From positions 26,852,505 to 26,916,504 of the forward strand of contig JAUZTB010000070.1 of the NCBI GenBank assembly GCA_034780895.1: a DNA stretch of 64,000 nucleotides, read 5' to 3'. The stretch's first letter is position 1; each line of letters begins with the position of its first letter. Of the stretch, positions 5,583 through 49,738 are shown in pieces. Position numbers and translations under genes: made by a program. This DNA is from Rhynchobatus australiae. Lineage: Eukaryota. The notes under the pieces are model-generated. The model was given only the letters and a program-made list of their open reading frames with translations, was not told the DNA's origin and made no database searches.

Positions 5583-5830
5583 TCCAAGTCAAGTCGAGTT
5601 CATTGTCACATGCACAAGTACATGCGTGCACAGGTGCAATGAAAAACTTACTTGCAGCAGCATCACAGGCACATAGCATCAGATAAGCAGCATTCACAAG
5701 AAAAGCATAAATTAAACATAAATCATACACAATTTTTACAAGAAAGAACACAATTAGAACAAAAAAAAGTCCATTTTAGTGCAAAGTGATCAAAGTGGTT
5801 ATAGTATTGCTCAACTGTAATGGTTAGGGT
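5583..5830 (-). mobile_element. Rex1-type LINE 3' tail
   Basis: Reverse complement of the tail attached to the Rex1-like ORF remnant at 25110-25680; ends in cttga-type short repeats. Confidence 0.7.
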
Positions 5831-25109: not shown

Positions 25110-25680
25110 GCGTACAGATATACTGTTGGAAGTATCCTGACTGGTTGCATCATGATCTGATATCTCAATTCAAATATGCAGGAGGAGAAGAAGCTGCAGA
25201 GTAGTGGACATGTGTTGCCCAACACATCACAGGCACATCCCTCTCCACCATCGGTAGTATCCACATGAGGTGCTACCTCAAGGGCAATATCTTTCATTAA
25301 AGGTCCCCACCATCGCGGCCATGCCATCATCTTGCAGCTACATCGGGCAGGAGATACAGAAGCTTGAAGTCCCACACCACCAGGTTCAAGAACCACTACT
25401 TCCCCTTAACCATTTGGTTCTTGAACCAATCTGCACTACTCTAATCACTACTCAGTATAGTAACACCATGACCATTTTGCAGTAAGATGGAGCTTTTTTT
25501 TCTTCTAATTGTGTTCTTGCTTATAAAAATTGTGCAGAATTTATGCTTAATTTATGTTTTTCTTGTGGGTGTAGCATATGGATGCTGTGTTCCTGTGATG
25601 CTGCTGCAAGTAAGTTTTTTTTATTGCAACTGTGCACACACATACTTGTGCATATGACAATAAACTTGACTTTGACTTTA
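25110..25680 (+). mobile_element. Rex1-type LINE 3' fragment
   Basis: YTVGSILTGCIMI motif remnant plus 3'UTR ending caataaacttgactttgact. Confidence 0.75.
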
Positions 25681-27689: not shown

Positions 27690-28498
27690 ATAATGTTCAG
27701 CAGAAATTTATCTCAACTAGAAAGGATTCCATAAGAGAGAGGAACCATCTGTGGTTAACAAAGGAGGTCAAAGATAATGTTAAATTGAAAAGTAGGGCAT
27801 ACAAAGTGGCAAGGGATAGTGGTAGAACGGAGCTCTGGGAATTTTTCAGGAACCAGCAGCAAAAGTCTAAAAAGCAGTTAAGAAAAGAGAAAATTGATTT
27901 TGAGAGAAAACTTGCATGTAATATCAAAGTGAACAATAAGCCTCTCAATGGATATATAAAAAGGAAGAGGGAGGTTAAGGTAAGTGTGGGACTTCTTGAG
28001 AATGAGGCTGGGAAATTAATAACAGGAAACAAAGAAATGGAGATGTTAAACAATTTTTTGTATCAGTTTTCACCAAATATCCTGAAGATAACAGGCTAGT
28101 TTTAAATAGCATGGAAGAACTTGTAAAAATCCGAATCATGAGAAAAATGTATTAGAAAAACTCGTGGGCATAAAGGCAAGCAGATCTCCAGGACCCGATG
28201 GCCTGAACCAAAGGATTTTAAAGGAAGTTGTTACAGAGATAATGGGGCCCATTGGTCCAAGTTTTTCAAAAGTTACTGATTTCCAGGAAGGTACCAGAGG
28301 ATTAGTAAAACAGCATATGTGATTATTGTGTTCAAGAAGGGAAGAAGACAAAAGGCAAGAAACTATAGGCCAGTTACTTTAACATCTATTATTGGCAGGA
28401 TGATAGAATCAATAATCGAAGAAGATATAGCTAATCATTTGGTAAAGATGAATATAATTAAAATAGGTCAACATGGTTTTATAAGAAAATCATATTTG
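27690..28498 (+). mobile_element. CR1-clade LINE ORF2 fragment (linker to RT start)
   Basis: KIDFERKLACNIK..K.L.GYIKRKR; SPGPDG; FKKGRRQKARNYRPVTLTSIIGRMIESII; QHGF. Confidence 0.85.
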
Positions 28499-29737: not shown

Positions 29738-31085
29738 AACACACACAAAATGCTGGAGGAACTCAGTAGGTCAGACAGCATCTATGGAGGGAAAACAGTC
29801 GATGTTTCGGGTCGAGATCCTTCATCAGGACTGGTAAGGTAGAGGGCAGAAGCTAGAATAAAAAGGTAGGGAGAGGGGAGGAGCACATGCTGGCAGATGA
29901 TAAGTGAGTCTAAGTGAGAGGAGGAAGATGTAGGGGAGGGGGGAATGAAAGGGAATGATGTAAGAAGCTGAGAGGTGATANNNNNNNNNNNNNNNNNNNN
30001 NNNNNNNNNNNNNNNNNNNNNNNNNNNNNNNNNNNNNNNNNNNNNNNNNNNNNNNNNNNNNNNNNNNNNNNNNNNNNNNNNNNNNNNNNNNNNNNNNNNN
30101 NNNNNNNNNNNNNNNNNNNNNNNNNNNNNNNNNNNNNNNNNNNNNNNNNNNNNNNNNNNNNNNNNNNNNNNNNNNNNNNNNNNNNNNNNNNNNNNNNGAA
30201 ATCAATGTTGATGCCATCAGGTTGGAGACTACCAAGGCAGAATAAGAGGTTGCTCATCTCACCTGCATTTGGCCTCAACATGGCAGTAGAGGAAGCCATG
30301 AATAGATGTGTCAGTGTGGGAGTGGGAAGTGGAATTGAAATGGCTGGCTACTGGGTGATCCTGGCTGTTGTGGTAGATGGAGTGAAGATACTCGATGAAG
30401 TAGTCACCCAGTCTGTGTCAGGTCTCACCGATGTAGAGGAGGCTGTATCGGATGCAATAAATGAAACCCTTGGATTCACGAGTGAAGCATGCCTCACCTG
30501 GAAGGACTGCCTAGGGCCCTGAATGGTGGTGAGGGGAAGATGTGCCCGGTGGTGGGATCTCATTGGAAGTCACGGAAGTTACAGAGAATGATGTGTTGGA
30601 TGGGGAGGCTCAAGGGGTGGTGGGTGAGGACAAAGGGAACCCTGTCCCTGTTATGTCAGGGTGGGGGGATGGGGAGAGGGCAGATGTATGGGAAATGGAG
30701 GAGAGGTGGGTGAGGGCTGCATAGATTTCAGTGGAAGGGAAACCCCATTTACTGAAAACAGAGAACAAATCTGATGTCCTGGAACGGAAAGCTTCATCAT
30801 GGGAACAGATGAGGCAGAGGAACTGAGAAGGGGACAGCATGCTACAAGTGACAGGGTGGGAAGAGGTGTAGTCAAGGTAACTGTGGGAGTGGGTGAGTTT
30901 CTGGAAGATGTTGGCAGATGGAGACAGAGATCAAGAAAGGGGAGAGGGGTATCAGAGATGGACCAAGTAAATTTGAGGGCAGGGTGGAAGTTGGAGACAA
31001 AATTGATGAAATGAAGGAGCTCAGCATGAGTGCAGGAAGCAGCACCAATGCAGTCATCAATGTAGCAGAGAAAGAGAGAAGACCG
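29738..31085 (-). mobile_element. Penelope-like retroelement (RT core, GIY-YIG endonuclease, terminal repeat with hammerhead)
   Basis: LFLCYIDDCIGAAS..FINFVSNFHPALKFTWSISDTPLPFLDL (RT); LLYIGET*HRLGDYFIEYLH (GIY-YIG); frameshifts and stops present. Confidence 0.88.
29796..29833 (-). ncRNA. Minimal type I hammerhead ribozyme motif (Penelope terminal repeat), partly decayed
   Basis: Minus strand reads cagtc-CUGAUGA-aggaucucgaccc-GAAAC-AUC-gacug; stem I intact, one stem II mismatch, ACGU palindrome lost. Confidence 0.65.
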
Positions 31086-35680: not shown

Positions 35681-35868
35681 GTTCATTCATTAAATTATTA
35701 AAAAGCAAGATCAGTTTAGACAAATTTTAGGTTCCTCTCCACTTGATTTTTCTGTTTCTGGGTGACAGTAATAGAAAAGGCCAAAAAAATCACATGTTTT
35801 TATGTCAGCATTAAGGGCCACTGATAAAGGCCATCAGTTATAATGAAACTATTGCCTTCTTATTTCAG

Positions 35869-35986
35869 TGGATGGATAGCTGCCATTGGGTTCTTCTCTG
35901 TTAATGTTGGTGCTGGAGTGGTCATGCTGTTTCCTGCAATTATGTTCACAGCAGTGGCAATTCTGAGTGTCCTTGTACTTCTCCGT
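35869..35986 (+). CDS. SCAMP4: SCAMP4 coding exon 6
   Basis: tatttcag|...|gtaagt; 118 nt; GWIAAIGFFSVNVGAGVVMLFPAIMFTAVAILSVLVLLR. Confidence 0.96.
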
Positions 35987-38097
35987 GTAAGTATTTTCCC
36001 TCTCAACTTAACAGAAAATTTTCTTTACATGTTCTTCAGGAAAAAAATTGCAACCTTCAAATAAGAGCTTGACACCAGAATATTGCTTGAATTATGAACA
36101 AATTATTCTGCACTACTCAGTGTACAGATGAAACTGCACAGCATACTGCTTGTTGATGCTGAAAGCATTCTGCAGAATACTCCCAGTTATGATGGATCTT
36201 AATTGGATTGTCAAGTTAACTACTCTAAAGAAGTGGTTGATTTTGTTGCTGATTAGGAATTTGAATGCCATTGAAAGTAGACTAGAATTCATCCTAAGTG
36301 ATAACTGAATTCCATTGTTCAGGCTCTTTTCCTTTCAGGAAAATTACTTGCAGAATTAAGGAATTTGCAGAAACCAATTTCAGTAATATGGTACTCTGAT
36401 TTATTCTGTACATGCTTGTTATTCCTTTTATGCTATATGTATATAAAAAAAACTTTCCCTTATCTAGGAGGCATTAAAAGTATTTGCAGGATCAAGGTTA
36501 ATAGTGGTGCAGTTTATGACTAAGTTATGATGTGTATTTTTTGTACACTTTGAAACATTTTGTTCCATTTGTTGAAGGCCAGTTAAAATTTTTGTTCTAC
36601 TCATTTTATACTTGTGAAGGTGTCAGTTTCAATCTGGGATCTTGTAAATGTCGTGTGTTGACAAATTGGTACAGTGTGGCTTAATACAAAGTAAGGCCCT
36701 TTTTACTTTGCTCAGGAGGCCTGATTTCAGAGGAATGTGATTTTCTTTTATTTTTCACATAGCCTCTGGAATTTATTGCCAGTTTCCATTGTTATGGAAA
36801 GTTTTGTGTTTAGGGCTTGGGCCAAGTAGGAAGCTGTTGGCGATTGCTCAGTGTAGTGGTAAAATTGACCTCTGCTCCAGAATAACATGAAGATGTTTCA
36901 ATCTATGGTGTGCATATTTGAGTTTTTAGTCATCGTGAACAAAGTTAAATTAATGACCAGTTATCTTCTGAGCAGGGAGTCACTTGACTTGTTCTGGTTC
37001 AGCTTTAGAAAGCTTGTTTTCTGATTTCAACTTAACCTCTCGATTAGGAATATAAGATGTACCAAGAAAAATTGGAGTGATGAAAGTTGCAATATAAATC
37101 TTTTTTTCAAAAAAAACTCTTTATAAACTGATTTGATTGGAACTCTTGAAACTAACCAGTAAGGAACTTTCGTATCACGAGTCTAGGAGCTTTTAATCCT
37201 GATGTTTATATTGTTCAGTTCACAGCTGTATTCAACTCCTTCCTTTCTTGCTCCTTGCTTTTCCATTCTGCTGTCTTCTACCTTCCTCCCACCTCATTCT
37301 GCCTTCCTTTTGTTCTTCCCACTTCTTTCCTCTTCACTATTCTTGTAATTGACTATCTGCCCTATGTGGTAAAACACTCTAATAGTTTTATTGCCTCCTG
37401 AGGTGAATATATCAGTGCCCACCCAGCAGACCATCTTCAAAGATTTGAAATCTACTCTAAACTCTGTCCTTGCTTGCATCTTTCTGTTGTAATTATCTGC
37501 TATGTGCACTCTGACCTATATAGGCTCCAATTCTCTCTGCATAAAACCTACCTCTTTGACAAGGCATTAATACTGCCTTTACTGCAGTATCAACTTTTGT
37601 CTGATTGTACTCCATTGATGTGTATTGAGATATTTTATAATGTTTATGTAAATACAAATAGCTGTCATTGCTTTTCATGCTCTATTAAGTTTTTAAAAAA
37701 TTCTTGTGTTTGTCCAGACTGATGGTGTTTTTGTTTGTAAATTAAATATTGTGCAGATTTTTGGTAAATACTAAGTGAAAGTACTGAATTGGACGGTTGA
37801 CCAATATAAAACACTGGACTGTAATACTGTGGATTGATTGGAAGTAGATTTCAGGCCTTAATCTGCTATGTAATTACTGAAGGGAATGATTGAGAAATTT
37901 GAATTTTGTCAACTAGACAGGCAATATGTACAGAGGGTGTTAATTCAGTGAATATTTGACCTTGTTTTGAAGGTGATAGTTGTTGCAGGAATACTTGGAG
38001 AAATTCCAAAGTTTTTCATACATTGCAAAATAGGAAGAGGAGAGAAGGAATAGATTGAAAATGTTTTCATATTTATCACTATAATTTACTCTATTAG

Positions 38098-38274
38098 GTG
38101 CACAGAATCTACCGGGGTGGTGGTGGAAGCTTCCAAAAGGCCCAAGAAGAATGGAGTGCAGGCACATGGCAAAATCCCCCACCTAATCAATTAGCATTTC
38201 AAACAGTTACTGGTAATACCCTGCCACAGTACCCCACAGTGCCAAGATACCCTGGTGAAAATGACTGGTCCTAA
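38098..38274 (+). CDS. SCAMP4: SCAMP4 last coding exon
   Basis: ctattag|GTG; VHRIYRGGGGSFQKAQEEWSAGTWQNPPPNQLAFQTVTGNTLPQYPTVPRYPGENDWS*; the LPxYPTVPxYPG tail is SCAMP4-like; spliced CDS 7+129+157+102+118+177=690 nt. Confidence 0.96.
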   Translation: MHRIYRGGGGSFQKAQEEWSAGTWQNPPPNQLAFQTVTGNTLPQYPTVPRYPGENDWS

Positions 38275-39903
38275 GATGTGAACCTGTAGACACAAAGTTT
38301 ACTTTATATTTTTATGATGTCATTTAACATTTAAATTGCAAATTAATGTTCTTCATTGTAAATGCCTCATATAATGCTACATATTGAAAATGTTAAGGCA
38401 TCTCTCATTGGAACTTGTTGCATTGCAAAGACTTCAAAATCATGAACAGGAAAGTCTTACTCGTGTATTATGTTTTTATTACATTTGTTTGCCGTTGGGA
38501 CTGAGGTTTCTAATCAGCACTAACTGCCATTATCTCAGACTTTAAAAGTGTATCAAATTGAAATTAGTTCCAAAATTTAGTCTGTGACTTTTAAATGTTG
38601 ATTCTCTTTTTAATCTGATCATGTCCAGAGTTAAAGTACTTCATCCATTCTCATCAGCAAAATCTGACCTAAATACAGAACCTTGAAATGTTCCACTAAT
38701 TGGACCTACTTCTGTACCTTTCCTGTATTTGCTTTATCAAAGGAACCTTCATTATCTTTGGATCTCACTGTATCATCCATGATTGCAGCAACTCGACTGC
38801 TTTTAAAAATAATATTGGGGATCCAGCAACTGCCATCTTCAACGACAAACTTTGACTCCTTAAAAACTGACCAATCATCCTGCATTGCCTTGTTACACAG
38901 CAGGACAACGATTCAATTACTCCTCTTAATGCATGATCACTTGACCACAGGACAGCAACCTGATGTGTGTCCCAAAGTCTTGTTACTCAGGCCGTAATGC
39001 CTGCAAGATCTATCCATAGTCAGTCTTGCTGTAGCAACTACATTTAACAGGATAGATATTAGTTGTTAATAATAGATAAAGTTCAACTCAGAAAACACAT
39101 CAAACCTCTTAATCCAACCATTGGAGCCTGGATTGCCCTTGAAATAGGCTATACCAATATCTTGCATTGGGAGAATGGCCCATTGGAAGAACTCCTTCCT
39201 CCAAGTGATATTAATACCTATACTATTATTGTCAGCATCATCCAGAGGTACACTAAAAGCCCTGCCCCTGTGATACTTAAGACATTTAAGTTCTCTGACT
39301 CTAAATATTGTATCTTCCAAGTCAATCCCTGCAAATCTAAAGGATGAAGAGAGGGATATGTCCTACATCCTCCTAAAATACTAACTTTCTAATAATCACG
39401 TTGGGGATCTGGGTAGCCAATCTTGGAATACCTTAGTAATATTGGTTGGGAGATATAGAATCTTTTTAATAAACTTTCTAATAACCTCATCCCAACCTTG
39501 CAATATATTTTGCAGGCTTGCCAACATTTCTGAGATACCATTTTTACACAGAAACCTTCCACAATTCTGAGGATGTGTCTCGTGCCTTTAAAAGAATCAC
39601 TGAAGACAGCAATATGATCAGCTAAGGCAAATACCGTACAGGACATATCAGAGATTAAACCCACTTCCATCCCTTTTCAAGGACATAATAAAATGTCTAT
39701 TACACAGTTAAATAAAGGAGAGAGCAGGAATGGGAGCGGTCTTCTCCTCCTTTCCCTCAATAGTCATAAAAGATCTAAAACAAAATCATTAAAAACTCTA
39801 CACGCACCGGGTCTGTCCAGAGCCCCACTGATAACAGTATGTCCAACAGAATCAAAAGCTTAGGCCAAATCTATATTTAACAAAAACAACCGCAATGTCC
39901 TTA

Positions 39904-40089
39904 ACAATGCACGCACAATGCTGGAGGAACTCAGCAGGTCAGGCAGGACTCAGTCCTGATGAAGGGTCTCGACCCGAAACGTCGACTGTTTATTTCCCTC
40001 CATAGGTGCTACCTGACTTGCTGATTTCCTCCAGCATTTTGTGTGTGTTGCTCCAGATTCCAGCATCTGCAGAATCTCTAGTGTTTTCA
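39904..40089 (+). mobile_element. Penelope-derived short fold-back element inserted in the R2 fossil
   Basis: 39918-39946 is an inverted repeat of ~40009-40037; PLE terminus ...ctccagattccagcatctgcag; near-perfect 11-bp TSD caatgtcctta / caatgtactta (39893-39903, 40090-40100). Confidence 0.8.
39951..39988 (+). ncRNA. Minimal type I hammerhead ribozyme (intact core)
   Basis: cagtc-CUGAUGA-a-gggu(cucg)accc-GAAAC-GUC-gacug: 5-bp stem I, 4-bp stem II, palindromic ACGU helix III, GUC cleavage triplet ending at 39983. Confidence 0.8.
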
Positions 40090-40842
40090 CAATGTACTTA
40101 GTTTCTTTTAGCTCCCAGTAACAAATTAACCAGAGTTGAGACTATGGGTATTTCCCAGAAATCTATTTCAGGTTACCAACTGATAAACCTTGATTGCATC
40201 TTAATTATTTCTTCAATTTGTACAGTCTCCCACTTTAAATACAACAAATTTATGGGCTATTTGATCAGTTTTACTGTGTGTCATCAAAACAAAACACACA
40301 ATATGTCCTTACTAAATCAATCTTAAAGTTCTATAAAACAAAACTCTGAATGCTTGAAGACAAAACCAATTAAGCAAGTTTACAGGAGTTAAACAAAAGT
40401 GTCTAATTATGCTTGTGCTTGAGTGGTCCAATGAGAGGCAATGTGCATTTACCCAGAATGTTGGACCCTTTAAGTTGGTTTATGAATCGACTTAATGTCA
40501 GCAAGGGACATGATAATTGCAAGTACTGGTTTAACATAGTGGTGGAAGATACTAATATTTTTAAATTGCATCCAACTTGTGAGATCAAAACAGCAAGAAA
40601 ATATTTCAGACATTAAAGATGCCAACAATTACTTGGAAAATTAAAATTTTGTATGTGGGGAGATGCATGTTGTTTGAAACATGGCTTCCTGAATATTGCA
40701 TTACATTAAATAAGTTTTGTAGTACAGATCATAACTGTTTGTACAATTTCTCAGATTTTTAAAGATGCTGCTTATTCCGCCTTTATTTCTGTGAAATGTA
40801 TATGCTAAATTGTTTTCATCCTTCAATAGTGCATTTTGGTCT

Positions 40843-41040
40843 TAAAGTCAACATCGAGTTTATTGTCATATGCACAAGTACATGTGCAATGAAAACCTTC
40901 CTTGCAGCAAAATCACAGACACATAGCATCATATAAGCAGCATTCACAAGATAAACTTAAATTATACACAAATTTTACAAGAAAAAAACACAATTGGAAC
41001 AAAAGAAACAAACTCCATTTTAGTGCAGAGTGGTCAAACT
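40843..41040 (-). mobile_element. Rex1-type LINE 3' tail
   Basis: Close match to 5583-5800. Confidence 0.7.
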
Positions 41041-44000
41041 TGGTGAATGGCACCTGAATCTCTAAGGTACTGTTGATGCATTAACTAATTTCAAAAAACA
41101 ATTTTGTCTGTTTCTTGGAAAAACTTGGTTAATTATATGTCTTCTTTACTAAATAATAGCCTAAATAATGTGTGACTAAATGCTGTATGATGCATGCAAG
41201 CATATGTGAAAATGTTGATGCATTACTCTAGGTATTGCCCTGTTTAGAGATATACTTCTCTAAATGCATTCCAAATGCTCTCACACTGCTGAAATTCAAG
41301 GCTGCTGTCTTCATTAGGCAATAGAAATGAAGATTTTTCAAAATATCTAATTCAAACATAACACATAGTCCAAACCTTTGAGTGTGTAATTTTTCTTTTC
41401 TGAAAACAATTTGAGTATTGTTCAATTTTCTGATACTGACTTCTAAAGTATGATTTGATGACTTATTAAAAATAAATTGCCATAAGGCAATAACACATTT
41501 CATATTCCAAATAACTGCATAATTGGAGGAGAATGTAATTTTTTTACATATAACAGTGAAAATGTTTTAAATTTTAGTTGACAAATAAAGTCTTACTAAT
41601 TTTTCAGAAATTAGTTAGAAATTTGTGGACACTTCCGTTTATTTTTTGGCTTGTCTCTCGTTGATCTTGAAATAAGTGCAGCTTTTTTCAGGGTATCTAG
41701 TAGGCACTAAGAACAAACTATATTGCCAAATTGTCACCAGGTTCATGATGATGTTGACAGCAGTGAGTACAGCCAACTGATGCTTTTAATGGAGGAAAAT
41801 TGTCCTTGCTAGTTAGTCCAATCATTTGGAATGATCACCTTTCTACAATAATATATAGAGGTGGGGGAGAAAGAAACAAATGGACTAATATGAAAGCAGT
41901 ATTGCTTCTAAACTGTATCACTTTTTTATGATGCATACTTGCTTCCGACATTGCAAAGGAATGAGTTCATTTGCTTTCCTTGCAGATAGAAAACAATTAA
42001 GAGACCAACAAAATGCTCAGCAGCAACCAGTCATGTGCTTTGAACGTTTTATTTAAATACGTTGTGCCCATTTTCCTAAGTGCACTTACCTATTCTGTCA
42101 TTATTGTTATAGCTGCCAAAGCCTAATGGGTGGAAGTGCCTTATAATGGTGTTTCTAGCTGAAATTGTGCTATAAACTGAATACACTTTTAACACTGGAA
42201 ACAGTGTTGTGGTCAGAAAATGCCTGCTATTAAACAATTTCATTGCAGAAGTTTTGCTGTATAAAAATAATGAAATTTCTGTATATTAAGCATGAGGTTG
42301 CTAACATTCTAATCTCAGTGAATCACTTGGAAAATTACAGAAGCACTTGCCTTTGGTTAGTTTTCCAAATTTATTTTTTTGTTGGGAGAAGGTTTAAAAG
42401 TGAAATACTTATTTACATTATATCAAAAGATAAACGTTCAAGAAATTAGATTTAAATACTTGGTCAACACATATATTTATACTCCTTTGATACATTAGTG
42501 TAAATTTGAAGAGATAGTTATGAGCTTTATACTTATTAATGCTTTTGAACAGTTGGTTAATTGCAGAATTTGAGCTGAAATGTTATATGAGATGAATAAT
42601 TTAAGTGTTATACACCAAGGATGCATTGAGAATTCAGTAAACAGCATATGGAAGCTTAAGTTATCAAAAATTCCTTTTTAGATGTTAATTGCTATAGATG
42701 CATTACAGGATTCCTTTCTATTTTAATGTTCTTGGGTGTCTGATACAGCTTGCATGGAAATAACATGAACAATTATATAAGTATAATTGCTGTGTTAGGT
42801 TTGATACTATAATGGGGCATGGCTATACAATTACTGCATATGAATTTATATTTTGCTTATGCGGTCATTCAGAACTGCTCGACACTTGTCCCTTTTTTTT
42901 GGTATTTAGTGTTCAATCTTATAAGCAGAGATGCAGAACTATTTGGAGATGAGGGGGACAGGGCTTGAGAAAAAGCTGTGGAGAAGGGATATATACACAA
43001 AGTAGTACACTTTCCGAGCTGCTTGTGACCAGACTTTAAATATTAAAACACAGCTGTCAGGGAGAATTCGCGGTCTCTTTTTTTGTTGAAGCATTGTGAC
43101 TTGTATGGAGGATATTAGTCAATTTAGGGTACTATAAGAAACCTCAGTAACATTATGTTTGGTGTGATTTTCAAATATAGTGAAAATTAGTGGAGAATGA
43201 TGAGAGTTCGCATATTACAAAACCATTCCTTCTCACGAAAACCTTCATTTGCAGAAATGTAAATGTATATTACTTTCACAAACCTACTTGTTAAAATTGA
43301 AGCCTGTGAGCAAACCTTTTGAAATCTATTGGGAATGTATAGAATAGCCATAACATAGTTTTGGAATATTCAAGTTATAATTGATTTAAAGTAGGTCATC
43401 AAATATGAGCAAATGTGAGGAGGAGCTTTGAACTCGAATCAATTTCTAACACTGTCTTTATTAGCAATGCCCTCAGTATAACTTCATATTAAAAGGAGGG
43501 GGATTTTTTTTTAGTTGTCATATGTCATTGCTTTTGTATGGAAGCAACAGAGTTTAGGTTAGATAACAAAACTCCAAATTTGTAATATTAATCTAATTTC
43601 AAGCTCTTAAAATTAGACTTCTAACATTCCATATTATAGTGCAAGTTACATTAAACAGATGCTTTTGGTGATTATTCCATTCGTTATATCTTAAATTCCA
43701 CTTTAATTGAGAGCACTACTGTAGTTATGTATTGTTTAATAGATTTAATGTAGTTTCTTAAGGCTTCTATAACTTAGATGATTTGTATTTGGTAATCAGA
43801 ACAGAATGCACAAAAGAATATTTTAGTTTTTATGCTTTGAAAAAGGAAGATTGCAGTGTTCTGCTTCTAGGTTTTTGAACCTAAAGTGACACATTTCATG
43901 TGTTTGTGTAATTTTTTTGTCTATTGTAATAACTTTTGGTATTCCTTTTGTGGATAACATTCTTAAAAAGTAGTTCTGCAAACATTTCTACACAAGGTAT

Positions 44001-45123
44001 TTATAATGTATCTATAATTTCTATAATTTAGTCCCCCTGTTCTGACTTGGGTATTGATAGAAAATCCACAATGTATGGAAAAGCTAACTTAAGATCTTCT
44101 ATGAACATTTGAAAGTTTACCATTTATTTACATTAGTAAGGAACACTATTGATTCTTTCAAAATTCCTCATTGTTCCCCTTTAAGGACATATCCAGTTTT
44201 TTTTCATTTTGAGTGGCTTTTTTGATCTTAGTATTTTACACTAAATAATACTTTGTGCAAAATTAAGTGTTAGAATTCTGATTTCCTCTGTATTGCCATA
44301 TTGACATTCTTGCAGTTACCTTTGTTTATCTGATTATAGTTACAAAAATTGGGGTATGAGATTTATGTTGGGATAAATCAGTTGAAGTACTGTTTGGATT
44401 CGACAATGTTTATAATTGCTCTTTGGCAGAAGGTTTTTAACTATTTTGTGTTTAGAATGCAGTAATGTGTCAATTACTAATAAAGAAATTATGCCAGTAA
44501 ATCAGTTGGCTGATCAGGTAACCTTCTCCCATCTTCAGGGNNNNNNNNNNATGATTCTGCCTATTTTTCATTTATGAACTGTTTAACTTTTTAACTTGGT
44601 GCAGACAGAAACTTGTATGGCAAAAAATTAATTGGCTAACTTCCAGAACACTTTGGTCTGTAAAGTTTTGAAGCTAATGAATTAATTTACAAGGTGTTTT
44701 TGTGAATATTTTATTTCTAATGTACATGGCGTACAATTTCATAGCAGATAATTGATTCATGTAAGTATACTAAAGTTAGTTGCTTGTCAAAATTAAAAGC
44801 AATGTGCTTTTTTGTTAAACTTTGTTCTCTCATAAAATGTAATCATTTAATAATTGAAACTGAAAAGAAGTTGCAAAAACTTCCTTATGGATGTGCTATT
44901 TTTCTGAACTGACAGCCCTACTCATTTGAATATATTTTAAGATGCCTGTTAATGTATTTTGCCTGTTTTGAAATTTGTTGTGTATGGAAAGTTAACTGTA
45001 AAATATAATGTTTCTTATTTAAGGGAAATGTATTGTTTTATTTTTTAAAAAAAGTTGGTGATTGCAGGGCCAAGAACTTTGTGGGAAGAATACTTTATTG
45101 TAAAATTATAACCTTGTAATACT

Positions 45124-45129
45124 AATAAA
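45124..45129 (+). terminator. Candidate distal polyadenylation signal AATAAA of SCAMP4
   Basis: Hexamer at the end of a U-rich, UGUA-rich segment; repeat-derived sequence resumes after it. Confidence 0.4.
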
Positions 45130-45217: not shown

Positions 45218-45378
45218 GTACAACAACAATAAAATGCTGGAGGAATGTAGCAGGACAGCCCTGGTGAAGGGTCTCGATCCGAAAGCTCGACTGTCTATTT
45301 CCCTCCATAGATGCTGCCTCACCTACTGAGTTCCTCCAGCATTTTGTGTGTGTTGCTCCAGGTTTCAGCATCTGCAGT
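45218..45378 (+). mobile_element. Penelope-derived fold-back element with mutated hammerhead
   Basis: aaaatgctggaggaa...gacagccCTGGTGAagggtctcgatccGAAAgctcgactgtc...ttcctccagcatttt. Confidence 0.75.
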
Positions 45379-49108: not shown

Positions 49109-49352
49109 ACTCTATTAGCCCCGATCATCATCAGTACCCATTTTCCCATTCCTTCAATCCTTTAATTCTTTGTATTTTAATACTTCACGATTATAATGCT
49201 GCCTATCTTTGGCACATTTACATATGCACTTTCAAGCCTCAGCCCGAAACCGTGACTGTTTATTTCCCTCCATAGATGTTGCCGGCCTGCTGAGTTCTTC
49301 CAGCATTTTGTGTGTGTTGCTCCAGATTCCAGCATCCGCAGAATCTCTCGTC
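49109..49352 (+). mobile_element. Penelope 3'-end insertion carrying an inverted copy of 48012-48137
   Basis: 14-bp direct repeats ttgggtatctataa (49095-49108, 49353-49366); 49237-49352 is a PLE terminus. Confidence 0.75.
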
Positions 49353-49738
49353 TTGGGTATCTATAAGCCTTGATTCTAGAAGTTAGGACCTGAGTGCCTG
49401 AAGCAATCACTACAAATAGTGGATAAAAGAAATCTAGGATGCACAAGAGTTGAATAAACCTGTAGCTTTTGCTGGTTCTAGGGCTGGAGGAGACCATGGG
49501 AAGGTTTGAGCCCAAGTAGGAGTTTGACCTTGCAAAACTACAAATCTGTTATTGGAAAGTGGGGTTCAGCTGGTTAGGTCTTTTTCTGACCAGCACAAAT
49601 GTAGTGAGCTGAATGGGCTCTCATATTACAACGTTTCTTTGATTCTATGAAAATCGAGGCTTGGGGGAACCAGTGGCAGGTAAAGTTCAATGAACGCAGT
49701 TGTAAAGCAGAACAAGGATTTGGATACAGCAAAGGTTA

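Follow-up and report, generated by a model that had tools for sequence, protein, structure and literature searches.

Introduction

How does a fragment of R2, a retrotransposon whose canonical copies are inserted at a 28S target, come to lie directly behind the stop codon of a protein-coding gene? The question is posed by a 64,000-nucleotide stretch of the Rhynchobatus australiae genome (contig JAUZTB010000070.1; hereafter the window), in which the original prediction had described a fossil R2-clade element, outside rDNA and antisense to the gene. Two explanations had been offered for it: an ectopic copy, or evidence of an old elasmobranch R2 lineage that lost its target specificity. Our search of the open-access literature on R2 outside rDNA, R2 in sharks and shark repeats found nothing on this locus or on non-specific elasmobranch R2 elements, and a term search of a 2026 review (PMC13580325) gave no passage on fossils or cartilaginous fish.

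Results

A decayed R2 fragment on the minus strand

Translation of the minus strand recovered every motif quoted in the original prediction, in the same order. The 5′ part of the series consists of AVVFV (39893-39879), DLA*AFDSVGH (39871-39839) and LSPLFNCVID (~39724-39695), which are followed colinearly by ALADHIAVFSDSFKG (~39625-39581), DEVIRKFIKKILYLP, GIPRLATQIP, WRKEFFQW... and CRHYGLSNKTLGHTSGCCP; the C-terminal motifs are IKRSN, DWSVFKE, PNIIF, IMDDTVR and KVQK* (38720-38706). When positions 38709-39602 were compared with the PDB by phmmer, with stops written as X, the only matches were to R2Tg and PlaMe (9nl3, 9dou (R2Tg) and 9nl2 (PlaMe), at E 5e-16 to 3e-15). These alignments span the CCHC knuckle and the RLE endonuclease, and lineage-D R2Bm gave no match at E<=10. 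Pfam matched the RT part to RVT_1 at an E-value of 0.0048, which is below the curated cut-off, and gave no match for the C-terminal part. An exhaustive homolog search with the fossil returned 179 proteins at E<=0.001 among 1.84 billion representatives; a word-seeded search, a method of low sensitivity, returned none. Frameshift-aware alignment, proposed at the outset as the means of checking R2 homology, scored 187 with a profile of 46 long matches and 246 with a profile of six shark-type sequences, against maxima of 21 and 22, respectively, in five shuffles each. In the six-shark alignment 158 of 404 aligned residues are identical, and the fossil has 164 deleted profile columns.

The colinear series of RT, thumb, CCHC knuckle and RHN/PD..D/KxxKY remnants, all of them degenerate, is that of an RLE-type non-LTR element. 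It contains neither an intact ORF nor an active R2: six stops and eight frameshifts interrupt it, FADD has become LADH and PD has become PN. Judged by these comparisons, the minus-strand fossil is a real, decayed RT-thumb-CCHC-RLE fragment of a lineage-A R2. Its parts and surroundings are listed in Table 1.

Table 1. Features of the fossil and of the adjoining gene, in window positions.
Feature	Position	Strand	Observations and basis
Last coding exon of the SCAMP gene	38098..38274	+	Translation; AG acceptor 38096-38097; stop TAA 38272-38274; organism D contig starts at 38098
Long SCAMP 3′UTR containing the fossil, at least 6.2 kb (probable)	38275..44500	+	Contigs of a single run, probably RNA, from a related species
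Region expected to hold the rest of the R2 ORF, 3′UTR and 3′ junction; 431 nt	38275..38705	-	Profile at shuffle level; 28S tests negative
RLE endonuclease remnant, broken	38706..38940	-	RHN to RSN, PD..D to PN..D, KxxKY to KVQK*; aligned to 9nl3/9dou/9nl2
CCHC zinc-knuckle remnant, second Cys lost	38950..39010	-	PDB and profile alignments
Thumb and linker remnant; linker segment common to shark R2s	39011..39515	-	Profile and linker alignments
Site of ~290-nt internal deletion (RT end and thumb start)	39492..39520	-	Profile gap of 94-97 columns
RT remnant, broken	39520..39902	-	KDIAVVFV..DLA*AFDSVGH, LSP-LFN, FADD to LADH; Pfam RVT_1 (E 0.0048) and profile alignments
High-copy 179-bp repeat with inner inverted repeat, in RT	39910-40088	.	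6-bp target duplication at 39904-39909 and 40089-40094
Outermost recognisable 5′ RT piece, 14 codons, colinear with piece across repeat	40101..40142	-	Anchored profile test

The span originally proposed for the element, 38680..40225, is supported at 38706-39902 and 40101-40142, but nothing supports its extension to 40225. The outermost piece (40142-40101) continues the profile at the expected columns, a result equalled by none of 500 shuffles and none of 430 random anchors in the window. At 40143-41000 and at 38280-38705 the R2 profile alignment stayed at the level of shuffles. Since nothing exceeds shuffles further 5′ of 40142, the fragment lacks zinc fingers, Myb and the early part of the RT, while at the other end the last ~70 profile columns and the 3′UTR of R2 are unrecognisable, just 431 nt separating KVQK* from the SCAMP stop. 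A 26-codon match to the R2 C-terminus at 38447-38370 scored within the range of shuffles and was rejected. Both ends of the element, where a 5′ HDV-like ribozyme and a 3′UTR would lie, are missing, and Rfam gave no match beyond chance level.

The insert previously placed at 39904-40089 does interrupt the RT; its bounds are corrected in Table 1, together with the 6-bp duplication on either side. In a read-depth comparison this repeat reached 418,067 against ~6, and we take it to be of the elasmobranch CR1-tail/SINE type. Further copies lie in the window at 45250-45377, 49243-49354 and 29738-29833. A second high-copy repeat occupies 40843-41000 in the UTR, with more copies at 5586-5760 and 25538-25680, and on the plus strand a weak RT match at 28140-28492 (E~1e-5) is probably a piece of another LINE.

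Relationship to chondrichthyan lineage-A R2 elements

The proteins closest to the fossil are chondrichthyan, at 35-39% identity: P0159 from bamboo shark, P0158 and P0167 from catshark, and the unnamed P0156. Identity is 37% to P0159 and also to turtle P0168, 31% to PlaMe, and 23-24% to the Myb-less pair P0100/P0150. The motif K[DEN][LI][AT]VVFV occurs in 9 of 165 RT-bearing homologs, namely eight named shark proteins and one unnamed shark-like sequence, and the linker alignment contains a segment common to the fossil and sharks. The lineage-A layout is defined, in the available portions of PMC13188248, as three zinc fingers plus Myb. Among 48 matches of at least 950 aa, in which Myb was scored with a seed-biased profile, Myb was found in 30 and the complete layout in 23, leaving 18 without Myb; this is the part that is missing from the fragment.

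In a 68-row tree built from a quick search the fossil joins six chondrichthyan-type rows (SH-aLRT 99). In a 36-row tree, drawn from the same 68 and with the fossil stitched using a shark-free profile, it is sister to the six chondrichthyan-type rows (100/98). When turtle P0168 and other vertebrate R2s were added (29- and 24-row trees) its exact place was not fixed. An AU test rejected a grouping of the fossil with PlaMe/gar/Denticeps (p 0.008) and did not reject one with the Myb-less pair (p 0.18). The trees, which the original prediction had called for, place the fossil with chondrichthyan-type R2s as long as the turtle protein is left out, the exclusion of other RLE clades being indirect since labelled Utopia, NeSL, HERO and R4 sequences were not among the rows. 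The assignment to lineage A follows from the closest sequences and from tree placement. Together, the PDB matches, homologs, trees and motifs support the earlier identification as R2 and sharpen it to a lineage-A R2 of chondrichthyan type.

An orthologous position behind a SCAMP gene

The reported position behind a SCAMP stop codon is correct. Pfam SCAMP matches three upstream exons, the last exon itself being without a Pfam match; the gene is presumably SCAMP4, rather than another SCAMP paralog. Words of 38100-39900 were present in 18 runs from six organisms, four of which were mapped onto 35700-44500 at 80% identity. In each of three organisms a single contig spans both SCAMP exon or UTR sequence and the fossil: 38098-39934 in D, 35701-39927 in E and 38307-38816 in F. 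The 5′ remnant at 40101-40142 is bridged by contigs in these organisms too. The insertion therefore predates the splits among these species. Comparison of the orthologous site, another of the checks suggested initially, yields what we regard as the new result: three other species have the fossil at the orthologous site. Run X18, which has no cover beyond ~42500 and gaps within the fossil, was set aside as evidence.

Divergence on fossil-bearing pieces is 5.1-9.2%, against 4.6-7.4% on UTR and intron flanks, so the fossil shows no sign of constraint. Organisms D (run X4) and E (run X15) carry 290 and 291 extra letters, respectively, at 39492-39514, where the profile has a gap of 94-97 codons. 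This confirms the alignment independently and shows that loss has continued in the lineage of this genome. At 38424-38425, 38496-38497 and 38713-38714, neighbouring positions differ between species by T>C and G>A, the pattern of independent CpG decay. By a crude simulation, six stops in ~400 codons fit ~0.15 substitutions/site (roughly 0.06-0.25), compared with ~0.03 substitutions/site in each lineage after D and E split off. The fossil would accordingly be roughly 2-8 times as old as that split; the available portions of PMC10787021 hold no usable neutral rate for an age in years.

Probable transcription in the SCAMP 3′UTR

In run X4 of organism D, contigs cover 38098-39934, 40102-40876, 40974-42982 and 42995-44500 at a depth of 23-27. 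Depth is 0 in five of seven intron bins, and a contig of equal depth covers the previous exon. This is a single run of another species, guessed to be RNA and of unknown strand. Because one contig extends from the first base of the last exon through the fossil while introns are empty, the fossil is likely to lie antisense within a SCAMP 3′UTR that in organism D extends for at least 6.2 kb, and we infer from this that it is also transcribed in R. australiae. The fossil contains three AATAAA hexamers on the plus strand, and the X4 RNA contig runs through them. The SCAMP 3′UTR may end at an AATAAA at 45124.

No detectable 28S sequence

The lack of 28S sequence on either flank, noted in the original prediction, holds under every approach that we used. 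Rfam found no 28S in the whole window, nor at 37500-42500 with a threshold of E<=10; two 28S target-site motifs, allowing three mismatches, gave one and two matches in the 64 kb, which is chance level, and none near the element; and the 24 eukaryotic 28S loci used as queries in blastn and nhmmer gave no accepted match. With blastn, one of these loci matched 34 nt at 38285-38317 (31.9 bits, shuffle maximum 28.3); we rejected this match because it corresponds to a position ~530 nt from the target site, has the opposite orientation to an R2 flank and was missed by the 28S profile. The 28S motif was likewise absent from viral contigs. The fossil is not a canonical R2 inserted in the 28S target and we class it as an R2-derived stray. 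Neither a junction nor a target duplication of the R2 insertion survives, and as the 3′ end of the element is beyond recognition, the lack of 28S describes its present location and says little about its original target.

Copies of the fossil and R2 pieces elsewhere

Most of the fossil sites listed have one contig per run. There are three contigs at 39401-39703 in X15, and a second contig at some sites in X1, X4 and X18, so related copies may exist; contigs were counted only at 80% identity or more, a level below which equally old paralogues are invisible. In the species' own run, depth over the fossil resembles that of its flanks, albeit as a weak indicator of copy number.

Decayed lineage-A R2 pieces occur on large scaffolds in other sharks, four in bamboo shark (0.46, 0.53, 2.0 and 4.4 Mb) and three in catshark (0.26-0.49 Mb); the size of the scaffolds is no more than a hint that they lie outside rDNA. 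The four bamboo-shark pieces form one tree group (98/99), and the N-terminus of one of them, P0180, closely matches by eye that of R2-1_STig, a 28S-inserted family of the zebra shark with canonical flanks. These four Chiloscyllium punctatum sequences (P0004, P0160, P0179 and P0180) make up one decayed subfamily, 67-86% alike and 44-51% like the 28S-flanked R2-1_CPu. Those of Scyliorhinus torazame (P0158, P0167 and P0171) are long R2-A pieces on scaffolds of 255-487 kb, and two are 95% identical.

Several further sequences came to light. P0168 (XP_065448199.1) of Chrysemys carries the annotation of a PDE3B isoform and consists of a 1291-aa lineage-A R2 ORF with zinc fingers, Myb, RT and endonuclease; it lies on a 156-Mb contig, has the AFDSVGH motif in common with shark R2s, and is possibly a near-intact R2 outside rDNA. 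P0157 (XP_078059768.1) is an R2-derived stretch inside a Mustelus zinc-finger gene model and likely an annotation artefact over an R2 stray. In birds, P0181 and P0221, which go by the name 'mitochondrial enolase superfamily member 1' and lie on contigs of Mb size, hold R2-derived stretches that are likewise likely artefacts over R2 strays. By eye, and as far as the available entries of Table S2 of PMC13188248 go, catshark R2-1_SCa apparently has ~110 nt of upstream 28S after other DNA, and no 28S flank is listed for R2-1_CCar of the white shark; both may be non-array copies.

Discussion

The reading that we favour, and consider probable, is that this dead lineage-A fragment strayed from a chondrichthyan R2 family that targets 28S, then underwent neutral decay, and is now likely to be carried along passively in transcripts of the SCAMP 3′UTR. 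The available entries of Table S2 of PMC13188248 include 13 rows of chondrichthyan R2s inserted in 28S, with the downstream 28S target present in 9 of the 10 rows examined whole. Among them is R2-1_CPu, which carries both 28S flanks and whose N-terminus is the same as that of P0159 (GCC16572.1). The fossil resembles the chondrichthyan lineage-A R2s (R2-1_CPu, R2-1_STig, R2-1_SCa, R2-1_SAc and R2-1_HSa) in domain order, in the KD[LI]AVVFV-DLAKAFDSVGH motif and in the thumb-to-knuckle linker. They have long or full ORFs at 28S, whereas it is truncated at both ends, broken, and outside rDNA at one locus common to several species. The knuckle and RLE endonuclease of R2Tg and PlaMe R2 (9dou, 9nl3 and 9nl2) also align with it at E~1e-15, but the catalytic motifs are mutated in the fossil, and PlaMe/gar/Denticeps constitute a different sub-branch of lineage A. 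Closer in condition are the non-rDNA R2 copies of five Drosophila species (PMC2718515, available portions) and the probable shark strays GCC17605.1, GCC31962.1, GCC38609.1 and GCC26521.1, which like the fossil are incomplete and away from a recognisable rDNA array; the Drosophila copies differ by 1-2% from rDNA copies, whereas the fossil is far older and sits in the 3′UTR of a gene.

The main competing explanation is that the fossil is a member of an elasmobranch subfamily of lineage-A R2, now extinct, in which 28S specificity was relaxed or lost and which spread through the genome. Loss of specificity has precedents in the non-specific families R2NS-1_SMed and R2NS-1_CSi of planarian and fluke (clades D and C; PMC5035012) and in R2-like elements outside 28S in a cockroach (PMC7650587), as far as the available portions of these papers describe them. 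All of these share with the fossil an R2-type protein outside 28S; those families are multi-copy with junctions that can be read, whereas what is seen here is one copy, of lineage A, with an unreadable junction. Such a history would be consistent with the lack of 28S on both flanks, with the 431 nt between endonuclease remnant and SCAMP stop, which leave little room for a 28S tail, with a fossil that branches outside the named shark R2s, with the extra contigs at 39401-39703 in X15, and with several R2-A pieces on large shark scaffolds, including the pair that are 95% identical. We nevertheless consider it unlikely. Living chondrichthyan lineage-A R2s keep the 28S target in the available portions of PMC13188248, the bamboo-shark strays group together and one closely matches a 28S-inserted zebra-shark family, depth over the fossil resembles that of its flanks, which is weak evidence, and the basal position may reflect a long branch or the lack of a named ray R2 in the tree. 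Of the two explanations originally offered, then, the ectopic copy is favoured, both by the 28S insertion of its lineage in living chondrichthyans and by comparable strays in sharks, while lost specificity is without positive support.

The remaining alternatives are far weaker. That the fossil belongs to another RLE clade (Utopia/NeSL, HERO or R4) might be entertained given the missing N-terminal Myb that defines R2, the AU result for the Myb-less pair, the long matches scored as lacking Myb by a seed-biased profile and the want of labelled references for those clades, but the 37-39% identity to shark R2s (23-24% to the Myb-less outgroup pair), the shark-specific motifs and linker, the strong support for the shark grouping in two trees and the restriction of PDB matches to R2Tg and PlaMe make it very improbable. 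There is equally little to recommend the idea that the fragment has been kept for a function in the SCAMP4 3′UTR, for example as a source of antisense RNA for small RNAs directed at R2, or through a part in regulation or polyadenylation: its antisense position inside a probable mRNA, its presence in four organisms and its three plus-strand hexamers are set against divergence that equals or exceeds that of the flanks, the loss of ~290 nt in this lineage, 37-39% protein identity to known R2s, which is likely too distant for base-pair targeting, and hexamers that are read through by the RNA contig.

For the stray copy that we favour, we infer the following route. R2 RNA co-transcribed from rDNA would have been reverse-transcribed at an off-target nick, giving a 5′-truncated copy; alternatively, a displaced piece of R2 and 28S could have lost its 28S later, which would look identical now. 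A copy with neither N-terminus nor promoter would have been unable to move again. Stops, frameshifts and deletions would then have piled up and the 3′ end been lost, after which the high-copy repeat landed in the RT, and a further ~290 nt would have been lost in this lineage following the split from organisms D and E.

R2 strays outside rDNA have already been seen in insects, and probable ones in other sharks, and the fossil is most likely an old, functionless example. Its present value is that of a modest paleogenomic record. It would mean more if a lineage-A R2 subfamily with loosened 28S targeting had existed in sharks and rays, or existed in them still, and had seeded dispersed copies across their genomes over a very long time, a proposition that we regard as doubtful: the SCAMP4 3′UTR fossil would then mark, at a dated orthologous site, both that subfamily and a lineage of jawed-vertebrate R2s that had left rDNA. 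Leaky or non-specific targeting by chondrichthyan R2s would bear on the evolution of R2 target sites and on the choice of R2 proteins as gene-insertion tools, since strays found in nature document off-target sites that were actually used; with its junctions gone, this copy cannot by itself demonstrate leaky targeting. Turnover of rDNA erases old R2 copies, and a stray fixed at an orthologous site offers one of few views of ancient R2 and gives a minimum age for the R2 lineage in rays.
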